Source of the DNA: Desulfobacteraceae bacterium
Lineage (GTDB): Bacteria; Desulfobacterota; DSM-4660; Desulfatiglandales; B25-G16
Length of the DNA stretch: 26,581 nucleotides
Reading direction: 5' to 3'
Assembly (NCBI GenBank): GCA_028572035.1
Contig: JAPVWE010000001.1
Coordinates: forward strand, 1-26,581
The position numbers and the translations under genes are program-made. The notes under the pieces are model-generated. The model had not been told where the DNA came from. It did not search any database and saw only the letters and a list, made by a program, of their open reading frames with translations. Positions 1,181 to 5,104 of this stretch are shown in pieces; positions within the stretch are counted from its first letter, which is position 1, and the number at the start of each line of letters is the position of its first letter.

Positions 1181-2119
1181 ATGTTTTATCTCATTTCAGC
1201 CATATATCTTGGCTGGTCTCTTGGTGCAAACGACGCTGCCAATATATTCGGCACGGCAGTCTCCTCAAAGATGGTAAAATTCATAACTGCCGCAATACTT
1301 GCATCCATCTTTGTCATTCTCGGGGCAATTCTTGAAGGCAGAGCAGGAATAGAGACAATAGGTAGACTATCTGCTATGGACCTGGGTACGGCAGGGATCT
1401 CATCACTTGCAGCAGCTATAGCAGTGACAATTATGACAATTTTGAAACTGCCGGTTTCCACATCGCAGGCAGTGGTTGGCTCTATCGTAGGTGTTGGAAT
1501 AATGGAGAAGCACGTAACGCTTACAGGCCTGGATAAGATTATTATATGCTGGATAGGAACACCGATCGGTGGATGTATATTGAGTATTGTTTTATATCTG
1601 GTTCTGGCGAGGATTATTAACAGATTTCAGCCATCATGGGCAGGCTTTGATTTTATCATGAGGACAGGCCTTATCATTACCGGATGTTATGGTGCTTATG
1701 CACTCGGTGCAAATAACGTGGCAAATGTAACTGCAGTTTTCTATGGCGCCGGTTTTCTTTCCTTAAAGACCGCTGCTCTGATTGGAGGTGTGAGCATTGC
1801 CCTCGGGATTCTGACATTCAGCAAGGGTGTCATGAAGACGGTAGGAAGAGGTATCGTAAAGCTCGATGCATACTCCGCCCTGATAGTAGTACTCTCTAAC
1901 GCAATAACCGTTCATATCTATGCTGTTATCGGGGTTCCAGTATCTACATCCCAGGCAGTTGTCGGGGCAGTTCTGGGGATTGGTTTGTTGAAGAGGGCAG
2001 AGGCATTGAAAAGGAGAGCCATTGTTGGTGTATTTTCAGGTTGGATTGCCACACCCTTTATTGCTGGTCTGGTTTCGATATTTATCTATTTTGTGACTCA
2101 TCTAACATATGTGGGTTGA
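1181..2119 (+). CDS. pit: PiT family inorganic phosphate transporter
   Basis: Two PiT signature repeats: GANDAANIFGTAV...LPVSTSQAVVG and GANNVANV...VPVSTSQAVVG. Hydrophobic, 312 aa, abuts the DUF47 stop. Confidence 0.93.
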   Translation: MFYLISAIYLGWSLGANDAANIFGTAVSSKMVKFITAAILASIFVILGAILEGRAGIETIGRLSAMDLGTAGISSLAAAIAVTIMTILKLPVSTSQAVVGSIVGVGIMEKHVTLTGLDKIIICWIGTPIGGCILSIVLYLVLARIINRFQPSWAGFDFIMRTGLIITGCYGAYALGANNVANVTAVFYGAGFLSLKTAALIGGVSIALGILTFSKGVMKTVGRGIVKLDAYSALIVVLSNAITVHIYAVIGVPVSTSQAVVGAVLGIGLLKRAEALKRRAIVGVFSGWIATPFIAGLVSIFIYFVTHLTYVG

Positions 2120-2237
2120 GTATCTTCCTATTGCTACAGCGAAAGAATTCAGTTCCTTTTCCTGTTTCAGTGTCGGCGCTTTTAAGCCGAATTCTTGCTC
2201 CACAAAACAGGCGAGATACCCCTAACCCAGATAAACC

Positions 2238-2324
2238 GGAATTGAGGAATTGCGAATTGAGGGATTAAGGAATTAAGATATGGAATAATTGCATTTTATC
2301 TACTAATCCCTGAATCCCTAAATC
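2238..2324. repeat. Octamer tandem-repeat hairpin element
   Basis: Left arm GGAATTGA-GGAATTGC-GAATTGA-GGGATTAA-GGAATTAA (2238-2276); right arm CTAATCCC-TGAATCCC-TAAATC (2303-2324) is the reverse complement of the unit. Confidence 0.8.
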
Positions 2325-2394
2325 ATGTTGGTGATGCTTAGAATTCAGGTTAGAATTTTGTGACCATTTTGAGCATGATCTTATTGATAAGGGA

Positions 2395-2487
2395 CTAAGA
2401 TTTTGACATATTTCCTTCATAACAAGACCTCTCCACCACCTGCATTATAATATCTGAGATAACCAGGTCAATCCTGTCTTTATTATT
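2395..2487 (-). pseudogene. Degenerate response-regulator receiver domain fragment
   Basis: NNKDRIDLVISDIIM, then after a frame change GGGEVLL and MKEI, follows the receiver pattern 'DxIDLVILDxIMPxxGGxE...KEI' of hybrid kinases. No N-terminus or intact frame. Confidence 0.6.
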
Positions 2488-2722
2488 TCCTATCAAGAAT
2501 CGGCAGAGGAGCCCGGGCGTAAGCCCGTGAGTGCCTACTTTTCCCTTTTTGCAAATAGGCCCTTGAATCACAATGTGGGATTTTCCTTCTCCTGGTTGAG
2601 ACCGAAACATTTTCCACTGAGACATTTTCCACTTGAAATTATCTCCCCATTAGCAGATAGTTTTTAAAGGATGCTTATCATTATTTCACGGATCTAATAA
2701 CATTTACCTTCTCATTAGAAGA

Positions 2723-3460
2723 ATGCCAGGCATTGAATTGACAAGGAGAGGATTTTGCAGACTAATAGGCTTCGTTTGCCTTTGTGGATCTCTTTTTGTT
2801 CCTCACAGCGTTTTATCCAGTGCAAAACGAAGGTCTCTTAAACGGAAAGGAGGTAGCAGAATGCACTTACCTGATCCAATGGCAGATGGAGATGTGTCCC
2901 TTGAAAGGACAATCCATCAAAGAAGAACCATCAGATCCTTCGAGAGTAAGGCCCTCACCCCCAAGCAGTTTTCCCAGTTACTCTGGGCAGCGCAGGGAAT
3001 TACAGAGACAGGAGGATTTAAGAGGGCTGCCGCATCTGCCGGGGCACTATATCCTATGGACATTTATGGAGTGGTTGGAGGAGATTGTATCGAAAAACTG
3101 GATCCCGCCGTTTACCACTATGAGCCTACCAACCATACCATCTCCCTTGTTAGAGAGGGAGATGCCAGAAGGGATATAGCAATAGCCGCGCTGAGCCAGA
3201 TGTGGATGGCCCACGCCCCGCTGACCCTTGTCATTACCGCAGAATACAGTCGAATCATGGGTAAATATGGCCACAGGGGAGTTAGATATGCCATGATAGA
3301 GGCAGGGCACATCGGGCAAAATATCTTCCTTCAATCTCAGGCGATGGGACTGGAAGCAGGAATCGTAGGGGCCTTTGAAGACGAGAAGGTTATCGAGGTT
3401 ATGGGGATTAAGAAAACACATGAACCCCTGCTTCTCATGCCAGTTGGGTACAAGAGGTAA
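2723..3460 (+). CDS. SagB/ThcOx-family nitroreductase-like FMN dehydrogenase with Tat signal peptide and internal second start (ATG 2861)
   Basis: Motifs RRTIRSF, ASAGALYP, EAGHIGQN. N-terminal LTRRGFC plus hydrophobic stretch is Tat-like. AAGGAGGT at 2847-2854 lies 6 nt before in-frame ATG 2861. Confidence 0.88.
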   Translation: MPGIELTRRGFCRLIGFVCLCGSLFVPHSVLSSAKRRSLKRKGGSRMHLPDPMADGDVSLERTIHQRRTIRSFESKALTPKQFSQLLWAAQGITETGGFKRAAASAGALYPMDIYGVVGGDCIEKLDPAVYHYEPTNHTISLVREGDARRDIAIAALSQMWMAHAPLTLVITAEYSRIMGKYGHRGVRYAMIEAGHIGQNIFLQSQAMGLEAGIVGAFEDEKVIEVMGIKKTHEPLLLMPVGYKR

Positions 3461-3672
3461 GCCATAGCAAGGGATCTTAGTTGTTAGAACTTGATATCTT
3501 TTGGATGTCACTGTGATGTGATTCCATCCGGTTATGGATCCATTCGATTCAGGATTTTTGCAAGGAGGTTAACAATGTTTAAGAGAGTTTTTGTTTACTA
3601 ATTCCCTTCTTTTTTCTTTGCCTTTTGCAGGGCAAAAATGAAGTTCATTCCAAGATGAGAGGAGGTAGGAAG

Positions 3673-4131
3673 ATGGAAATAAAAATTACGAGCACTGCTT
3701 TTTCTGAAGGCAGCATGATTCCAAAACGCTATACATGCGATGGGGAAGATGTTTCTCCCCCTCTGGCATGGACTGGTGTTCCTGAGGGCACAAAGAGTCT
3801 TGCCCTTATCTGTGATGACCCTGATGCGCCCGTGGGAACATGGGTACATTGGGTACTCTTTAATATACCAGCAGACATGCAGGAGTTACCTGCCAACATA
3901 CCTCTGGAGAAGATCATCAAAAATGGTGCAAGACATGGAACAAACGACTTTCGAAAATTCGGTTACGGGGGCCCATGTCCTCCTGGTGGAACGCACAGAT
4001 ATTATTTCAAACTCTATGCCCTTGATACAGAGATTGATCTTGAGAGTGGAATTACTAAGGCACAATTGCTCAAGGCCATGGAAGGTCATATCTTGGCCGA
4101 AGGCCAGTTAATGGGAAGATATAAGAGGTAA
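3673..4131 (+). CDS. YbhB/YbcL family Raf kinase inhibitor-like (PEBP) protein
   Basis: PEBP motifs DPDAP, WVHW, YGGPCPP, HRY. GAGGAGGT at 3659-3666 lies 6 nt before ATG 3673. An upstream signal-peptide frame starting at ATG 3575 is disrupted (see findings). Confidence 0.92.
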   Translation: MEIKITSTAFSEGSMIPKRYTCDGEDVSPPLAWTGVPEGTKSLALICDDPDAPVGTWVHWVLFNIPADMQELPANIPLEKIIKNGARHGTNDFRKFGYGGPCPPGGTHRYYFKLYALDTEIDLESGITKAQLLKAMEGHILAEGQLMGRYKR

Positions 4132-4430
4132 ATGATACTCTTTGACCGGATAAACCTCAATTATGTCAAATTATTAGACTATTGCCAGATTCTTGACAAC
4201 TTTTCCGTCCTGCGGGTACGTGTTAGTATAATGCTTGAGATGATAACCTATTGATATTACAGGCTTATTGACCTAAAGAGAAATAATTTCCTCTATCGCA
4301 TGCAGCGGGCACACCTCTTATCATAAGTGACTGGGTGCTTGCATCTTGCATGCTAGTTGTGACAGATATAGCAGAAGACTCCAGGGAATTTATGATCAGT
4401 GATTATATGGAGAGGGCAGGCAATCCTTTT

Positions 4431-4742
4431 CAGGCTGTTGCCCAAGGCCGTTTTACAACGCGATTCTCATCAGTAGGGAACAGCGGAAAAGAATCGTATT
4501 CATGAGCTCTCGCTCAGAGCTGACATTGTAGAGGATTAGGAGGAGCATCATCTTGACAATAACAGGGGAGGCACTGAAACACTACCATTTTCCCCATAGC
4601 CCTCTTTTGCTTTAGCATAGATAAAGTCAAAATCGATCTATTCTTTAATCTTGCGTAGAAGGTGATTTTGTGGAATTCTTTTCTCAAGATTCGCGCTGTA
4701 GTAAGAGAGCTTCGGTTGATAGTTGGACTGATAACCCATCAT
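4431..4742 (-). mobile_element. Internally deleted, inactivated IS1182-family element (transposase N-terminus, DUF772-like)
   Basis: Not in the ORF track. SD AGGAG then ATG 4742: MMGYQSNYQPKLSYYSANLEKRIPQNHLLRKIKE*IDFDFIYAKAKEGYGENGSVSVPP/[fs]VIVKMMLLLILYNVSSERELMNTI. In-frame TAG at 4640-4638, frameshift at the G run 4565-4568, similarity lost near 4492. TTGGGCAACAGCC (4445-4433, minus) is a candidate right end. Confidence 0.8.
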
Positions 4743-4756
4743 GGCAAACTCCTAAT

Positions 4757-5104
4757 CTATTGATTAGAGCTTAGGTCCTCTAAGATTGATAGTCCAACTA
4801 AATAGAGTCCTTTGAATCGTCCATTTTCATCTTTGGCGATATCTCTGATCTCTGTTTCTAAGTATTCAATAGGTCTTGATGAATTAGTCGTGTAGTATTT
4901 CAGATTCAGGATGTCACCGGCCTTCAGGCGATTCAATAAACCAGAATCTTCCATTACCAATACACAGATTCCCTTCGGTGATATATCCCAGATTTTGAAT
5001 TGATAAGCAAAGGCGCTTTCACTTATTGAAAATTCTACGCTGTGGTATTGATCTATAATAATGCTTCTGGGTTTTGATCTTCTCTCTGTAAAGCTGTCTT
5101 CCAT
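4757..5104 (-). CDS. PilZ-like domain protein (putative c-di-GMP receptor)
   Basis: RRSKPR (RxxxR) and DISPKG (DxSxxG) motifs with a beta-rich pattern. ATG 5104 preceded by AAGGG is preferred over TTG 5176. Confidence 0.75.
   Translation of the reverse strand: MEDSFTERRSKPRSIIIDQYHSVEFSISESAFAYQFKIWDISPKGICVLVMEDSGLLNRLKAGDILNLKYYTTNSSRPIEYLETEIRDIAKDENGRFKGLYLVGLSILEDLSSNQ

Follow-up and report, generated by a model that had tools for sequence, protein, structure and literature searches.

Can a single bacterial gene supply both an exported and a cytoplasmic protein by means of a second start codon placed exactly where its export signal ends? The question is raised by two adjacent genes in the 26,581-nucleotide stretch of contig JAPVWE010000001.1 of a Desulfobacteraceae bacterium that we analysed (hereafter the window), i.e., a nitroreductase gene and a gene of the PEBP (YbhB/YbcL) family. 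According to the original prediction, made from the letters of the DNA, each of the two encodes a signal-like leader, followed by a linker that spells a strong Shine-Dalgarno (SD) sequence in front of an in-frame ATG, such that alternative initiation would yield two isoforms. The positions and linker sequences given for both sites are correct as read directly (ATG 2861 and ATG 3673). Based on comparisons between homologs, we hold with high confidence that this internal SD with its ATG functions as a start site and is maintained by selection. That alternative initiation gives exported and cytoplasmic isoforms from one gene in both families is in our view probable. The comparative support for two isoforms is strong in either family, while the PEBP gene of the window itself is left with its short form only.

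The nitroreductase open reading frame (ORF) at 2723-3460 encodes a nitroreductase-fold protein of SagB type with 245 residues. Its parts are as follows.

2723..2725, forward strand: upstream ATG of the long nitroreductase form, without a Shine-Dalgarno sequence as read from the sequence
2723..2860, forward strand: Tat-like (twin-arginine translocation) leader and linker, 46 codons, with a T-R-R-G-F motif (R-R at 2744-2749), a hydrophobic stretch, an SSA site and a basic linker
2846..2854, forward strand: internal Shine-Dalgarno sequence AAAGGAGGT, within codons K42-G43-G44 (AAA GGA GGT)
2861..2863, forward strand: internal in-frame ATG (M47), with a GGAGG-to-ATG spacing of 7 nucleotides
2861..3460, forward strand: short form of 199 residues, SagB-type nitroreductase domain (PF00881, TIGR03605)

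The junction sequence AGGAGGTAGCAGAATG at 2848-2863 encodes K42-G43-G44-S45-R46-M47 of this ORF. The domain is matched by PF00881 (1.3e-27, 97.5 bits, cut-off 23.5) as well as TIGR03605 (1.7e-35, 122.1 bits, cut-off 78.4), and the alignments to solved nitroreductase homologs begin at about residue 3 of the short form. The predicted order of a Tat-like leader and K-G-G-S-R-M is indeed found in frame from ATG 2723: by inspection, the leader reads T-R-R-G-F-C-R, then a hydrophobic stretch, then SSA, and its R-R pair is invariant across about 36 long forms. We thus refer to the leader as Tat-like by motif. TatC (PF00902) is encoded in the window's genome (G000:C9:4136-4765, E 7e-74), which is among the 21/25 genomes searched in which it is present. 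Also the claim that the upstream start at 2723 has no good SD is confirmed. For the upstream starts of 13 long-form orthologs we computed SD duplex energies from +3.6 to -4.5 kcal/mol (an alternative ATG in L009 reaches -7.4), and for the internal start of orthologs the values lie between -12 and -16 kcal/mol.

To relate these energies to a chance baseline, we considered 4916 internal in-frame ATGs within long ORFs, all from the 1.7-Mb assembly to which the window belongs. SD duplexes with energies of -9 kcal/mol or below are found for 2.3% of them, and -13 kcal/mol is reached by 0.04%. Since the duplexes at ATG 2861 and ATG 3673 have energies of -13.3 and -13.4 kcal/mol, respectively, we exclude chance as their origin. 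When the entire assembly was screened for the combination of hydrophobic leader, GGAGG and in-frame start, the nitroreductase alone was returned, besides one weak GTG candidate on contig C99. A genome-wide habit was therefore rejected, i.e., the arrangement is a property of these two genes. The candidate on C99 of G000 (minus strand, about 2149-4095) shows a clear signal peptide, then GGAGGAGGTG and an in-frame GTG at codon 34-35.

Next to its rarity, the internal signal is conserved as a unit. We compared about 90 nitroreductase homologs and 70 PEBP homologs, the latter spanning the order; the closest nitroreductase relatives come from Desulfobacterales and Desulfobacteraceae metagenome-assembled genomes (MAGs) of cold seeps and hydrothermal sediments. 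All of the about 36 long forms with an R-R leader have a Met at the junction (M-x-L-P-x-P) behind an SD, and further homologs (L016-L019, L050, L052, L055) start at this very Met. Distant homologs, whose leaders are Sec-like, membrane-anchor, lipoprotein or Tat-like, have I, V, L or F at the junction position, without an SD. Because these leader-bearing homologs do without it, the junction Met is required neither by the fold nor for export.

The SD itself is spelled in many ways. In the window's family it reads AAA GGA GGN (K-G-G), in L012 GTA AAG GAG GAT (V-K-E-D) and in L013/L014 AAA AGG AGG GTG (K-R-R-V), with Q-E-G, R-K-E, P-K-E-E, E-E-E-A, Q-G-G and others found in further nitroreductases. 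That is, the SD is maintained in three reading frames and through many amino-acid spellings. The PEBP leaders have diverged beyond recognition, yet they retain A-K-G-G-x-x-M or an equivalent (K-G-G, A-E-E-V, A-K-E-V, G-E-G, R-E-E-V, I-E-E-V or A-E-E-K at the SD), and about 16 PEBP homologs start exactly at the junction Met. The distance from GGAGG to ATG is 7 nucleotides at both sites of the window and 5-9 nucleotides in most homologs. A double-glycine protease site as the cause of K-G-G was considered and rejected, given that homologs spell the SD with quite different residues.

With regard to duplex energies, leader-bearing nitroreductase homologs have a median of -11.7 kcal/mol when a junction ATG is present (n=36) versus -3.5 when it is not (n=36), and the respective PEBP medians are -12.9 (n=43) and -3.7 (n=10), where the p-values are indicative only, as the genomes compared are related and independence is overstated. 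The two elements are also lost jointly: the PEBP gene of L135 shows GTA in place of the GGA of the SD together with GCG in place of ATG, and in one family of the order the PEBP leaders have neither SD nor ATG.

Two side observations concern the distribution of the layout. In family f4 (L016-L019, L142-L146), the nitroreductase occurs leaderless only, the PEBP has a Sec-like leader without internal Met or SD, and the genes are not adjacent, such that both look 'resolved'. In a Desulfobulbaceae MAG (L073), the Tat-like leader of a nitroreductase homolog ends in a lipobox-like A-G-C, followed by a strong SD (TGGAGGTG) and the junction ATG; this may be a two-start layout on a lipoprotein-type leader.

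Whether the protein or the RNA is under selection can be assessed at columns with an invariant residue that is four-fold degenerate. There are 38 such columns among 12 nitroreductase orthologs and 29 among 27 PEBP orthologs. Within each family a single column (1/38 and 1/29, respectively) also has an invariant third base, and in both it is the GGA of the first glycine of the SD (G43 of the nitroreductase). The glycine that follows this GGA uses all four third bases, and GGA makes up 28% of the glycine codons in the window's genome. Because the SD's GGA is the sole invariant third base among these columns, we take its conservation as direct evidence of selection that acts on the RNA rather than the protein. 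The homolog alignment thus gives the outcome that the predicted start site calls for, i.e., the SD is not lost through synonymous variation. Two strain variants, A to G at 2848 and C to T at 2857, are synonymous, and the change at 2848 yields the AAG GGA GG spelling of orthologs.

The upstream extension is likewise conserved, namely as a signal-like peptide in homologs. Within 36 nitroreductase long forms (1670 leader codons), the protein frame contains no stop, whereas the alternative frames have 106 and 82. By codon position, variable sites amount to 0.45/0.35/0.72, and the ratio of nonsynonymous to synonymous polymorphism (pN/pS) is 0.45 for the leader versus 0.23 for the domain. Judged by these coding signatures, the leaders are real coding sequence and translated.

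The PEBP gene of the window comprises the following features.

3562..3569, forward strand: Shine-Dalgarno sequence AAGGAGGT that serves the PEBP leader start; an SD-like sequence occupies this place also in orthologs
3575..3601, forward strand: truncated leader ORF, MFKRVFVY and then TAA (3599-3601)
3588..3592, forward strand: T5 run where the window lacks one base that orthologs have (TTTTTG instead of TTTTCTG)
3583..3672, forward strand: leader remnant in the PEBP frame with hydrophobic stretch, LQG site and linker, without a usable start
3659..3666, forward strand: Shine-Dalgarno sequence GAGGAGGT within the R-G-G codons (AGA GGA GGT at 3658-3666)
3673..4131, forward strand: PEBP of the YbhB/YbcL family, 152 residues, from ATG 3673 (PF01161, TIGR00481)

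Here, AGGAGGTAGGAAGATG at 3660-3675 encodes R-G-G-R-K-M, and the PEBP domain begins at 3673. It is matched by PF01161 (5.6e-49, 166.4 bits, cut-off 24) and TIGR00481 (1.1e-49, 168 bits, cut-off 57.75). Among solved relatives, 3n08 ranks best, with YbhB and YbcL next, and the alignment to the cytoplasmic YbhB of E. coli (1vi3) begins at residue 1 of the short form. The PEBP leaders of orthologs are Sec-like, with K-R rather than R-R, and in contrast to the nitroreductase leaders they carry a strong SD of their own.

For this gene, the prediction of a signal-like leader that runs into R-G-G-R-K-M holds in part. Motif and leader remnant are present, but the leader is out of frame with any start in the window, and the hydrophobic remnant follows an in-frame TAA at 3580-3582. 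Since the leader is frameshifted, ATG 3673 is the sole usable start of the PEBP domain and not a second one. An assembly error as source of the frameshift was rejected: the same T-run frameshift is found, gap-free, in DNA contigs from three separate studies that agree with each other. In one of these three studies, a co-occurring strain has an intact PEBP leader. A -1 slip of tRNA-Phe on UUU at the T5 run would continue with Cys-Leu-Leu-Ile-Pro, exactly as in the orthologs. No canonical slippery heptamer is present at the run; a low-level recovery of the frame is conceivable.

The window's gene is one of four natural PEBP knock-outs in which the leader is lost while SD, ATG and domain are intact. 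In L105, an extra T directly follows the leader ATG, at a T run. The leader of L114 is degraded and ends with a stop just upstream of the SD region. In L160 (G037:C31), one base is lost in the linker, such that the leader forms a separate ORF of 38 codons with an intact signal-like peptide; the TGA of this ORF overlaps the PEBP ATG (ATGA), which is an arrangement characteristic of translational coupling. Mapped on the PEBP tree, at least nine changes are needed for the leader state and three for the internal-start state. The dual state is found in 37/70 rows and on both halves of the tree, and some lineages are settled, i.e., they are restricted to export (internal start lost) or to the cytoplasm (leader lost).

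How would two proteins arise from one such gene? In both families, an export leader (Tat-like in the nitroreductase, Sec-like in the PEBP) is joined to the domain by a short linker that spells a full SD 5-9 nucleotides before an in-frame ATG, and this internal ATG provides the first residue of the folded domain. We propose that initiation at the upstream codon would give a precursor that is exported and presumably cleaved, whereas the product of initiation via the internal SD would have no leader and remain cytoplasmic. Once signal peptidase has acted, a difference of only about 5-20 residues between the mature products is expected. Given an upstream start without SD and a very strong internal SD, we expect the cytoplasmic form of the nitroreductase to be dominant and its exported form to be minor. 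We infer that both products are made and are located in different compartments. The further claim that the two neighbours form a 'dual-compartment redox/stress module' is not supported beyond their adjacency; nothing links the functions, and the adjacency is found in about ten genomes of the window's family only, not outside of it.

Several observations weigh against two isoforms. As read from its sequence, the window's PEBP is limited to the short (cytoplasmic) form, i.e., two forms are not possible there. Among the nitroreductases, no upstream start of any ortholog scored has an SD. When six leaders were compared with NCBIfam and Pfam at E-values up to 10, no match to a Tat signal (TIGR01409-type, PF10518-type) was obtained, which is weak evidence as short motifs are often lost in HMMER filters; because the curated profiles gave no match, the term 'Tat-like' rests on the motif. 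In a public gene-call collection, the exact short form of 199 residues is present and the form of 245 residues is absent. Moreover, all 37 members of the respective public gene-call cluster are short forms or fragments and the Tat-like leader is for this reason unannotated throughout the cluster. The long nitroreductase form could be rare or conditional. One RNA-library run contains related-strain contigs that cover 3529-3803 and 3945-4132; these may stem from DNA carry-over and are uninformative on transcription, ends and strand. The relatedness of the genomes behind the energy comparison adds to this list.

Some of these points are equally what one would expect if only the internal start were used, with an upstream leader that decays or is rarely translated and a protein that is simply cytoplasmic. 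The nitroreductase leader ATG has no SD, gene callers always choose the short form, and at least four breakage events are seen among the PEBP leaders. A decaying leader is difficult to reconcile with frames that are open in 36/36 nitroreductase long forms and show codon periodicity, a pN/pS of 0.45 and an invariant R-R, nor does it fit PEBP leaders that carry their own strong SD; we rate this explanation as quite unlikely. The reverse case, in which only the long form is made, would turn the internal signal into an evolutionary relic, i.e., the gene of an originally cytoplasmic protein would have been extended upstream by a leader, with its old SD and ATG not yet decayed. Sister lineages do have short forms that start at the junction Met. 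The synonymous-site result contradicts a relic, however, as all other invariant four-fold columns changed at the third base. Furthermore, the SD is invariant across families in which the leaders have diverged beyond recognition, and it outlasts changes of frame and amino-acid spelling. We give this idea hardly any weight. The internal SD could also act during elongation instead of initiation, namely as a programmed pause that helps the exported precursor to be targeted, loaded with its cofactor or folded. For membrane proteins of E. coli, SD-like pause elements early in the coding region have been suggested (PMC4359368), and like those, the genes studied here have a strong anti-SD match in the coding region soon after a hydrophobic N-terminal segment, just past the signal peptide. 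In contrast to those pauses, the SD studied here is coupled to an ATG at a distance typical of starts, and this ATG is the first codon of some homologs. No ATG would be necessary for a pause, but SD and ATG occur or are missing jointly. A ribosome stalled at this position would still hold most of the signal peptide in its exit tunnel, such pauses are fewer in periplasmic than in cytosolic proteins (PMC4359368), and exported homologs of other lineages, Tat-like ones included, have no SD. A pause in place of a start is hence improbable in our assessment.

A different use of two starts is restricted to the nitroreductase. The Tat pathway exports folded oligomers, and proteins of the nitroreductase fold form dimers. 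Abundant leaderless subunits could thus pair with rare subunits that have the Tat leader, and the folded heterodimer would cross the membrane on one signal peptide; the two starts would then set the ratio of subunits and not the compartment. An upstream start without SD next to a very strong internal start predicts the required surplus of leaderless subunits, and TatC is present. On the other hand, an identical arrangement is found in the adjacent PEBP, whose leader is Sec-like (K-R instead of R-R). Such hitchhiking cannot explain the PEBP because Sec moves unfolded chains, and the many homologs that are leaderless only imply that a cytoplasmic role exists. We consider hitchhiking unlikely. 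A broader variant regards the nitroreductase start pair as a built-in ratio device, in which few Tat-leader subunits ferry many leaderless partners as folded dimers and the rest remains cytoplasmic, with the junction of signal and SD-ATG as a long-lived switch point at which lineages become, time and again, either 'exported only' or 'cytoplasmic only'. We offer this as a speculative possibility with a small chance of being right. Separate exported and cytoplasmic isoforms, produced by initiation at either start, are the explanation we favor for the two families.

We also searched the surrounding sequence for RNA and promoter signals. An Rfam scan of 2000-4800 gave no match, and the local mRNA folds at the four starts are unremarkable, their z-scores ranging from -0.5 to +1.75. 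Within 2849-2877 of the window, the nitroreductase SD (GGAGGUAG) can pair with the L-P-D-P codons (CUUACCUG..CC) just past the AUG to form a small hairpin. The pairs of this SD/L-P-x-P hairpin are invariant in 12 orthologs, i.e., they show no covariation, and its fold energy is ordinary. A scan for consensus promoters found none within either leader; a single weak promoter-like site is located at 2633-2661. No small ORF ends beside ATG 2723 that could act as a coupling upstream ORF. The region 2120-2722, i.e., the about 600 nucleotides from a Pit-type phosphate transporter gene to the nitroreductase, contains no convincing ORF and has no Rfam match.

How does this layout relate to known systems? 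Bypassing a signal peptide via alternative initiation is common in eukaryotes, while to our knowledge there is only a handful of bacterial cases, mostly from one species. In E. coli, in-frame internal initiation removes the signal sequence in SpeA-74/SpeA-70, and bamA, ivy and yghG are candidates for the same (Ribo-RET, bioRxiv 10.1101/520783). As in these genes, a second start further downstream drops all or part of the export signal, such that exported and cytoplasmic forms are expected. The E. coli cases stem from the profiling of a single species; most of their internal starts lie inside the signal, and they are modestly conserved. The start studied here, in contrast, is placed exactly at the junction of signal and domain, has a full GGAGG and is conserved across an order and in two unrelated families, as identified by sequence comparison. 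For Neisseria PilB (MsrAB) and HBP35 of Porphyromonas gingivalis, the full-length protein is secreted and a truncated form from an internal AUG, without signal peptide, is cytoplasmic (PMC2907840 and its reference 19). Their short form additionally loses a whole thioredoxin domain and the functions differ, unlike the two mature products proposed here, which would be almost identical. N-terminal proteoforms are reviewed more generally in PMC13515050. The kind of mechanism is thus already known; what appears distinctive is the position at the junction, the depth of conservation, a Tat-like case whose primary start has no SD, and two unrelated neighbours that share the design.

Two unrelated families with clean comparative evidence provide a simple sequence rule by which such genes can be found elsewhere. 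The locus also exposes a blind spot of annotation, i.e., a conserved Tat-like leader that is unrecorded in public gene calls. Because this leader is unrecorded, predictions of the exported proteome are incomplete for the cold-seep relatives among sulfate reducers. Finally, E. coli serves both compartments with two paralogous PEBPs, the cytoplasmic YbhB (1vi3/1fjj) and the periplasmic YbcL (1fux), which belong to TIGR00481 like the PEBP studied here. In contrast to this two-gene solution, one gene with two starts would serve both compartments in the lineages that retain the layout, which suggests that a single gene can do the job of the E. coli YbhB/YbcL pair.

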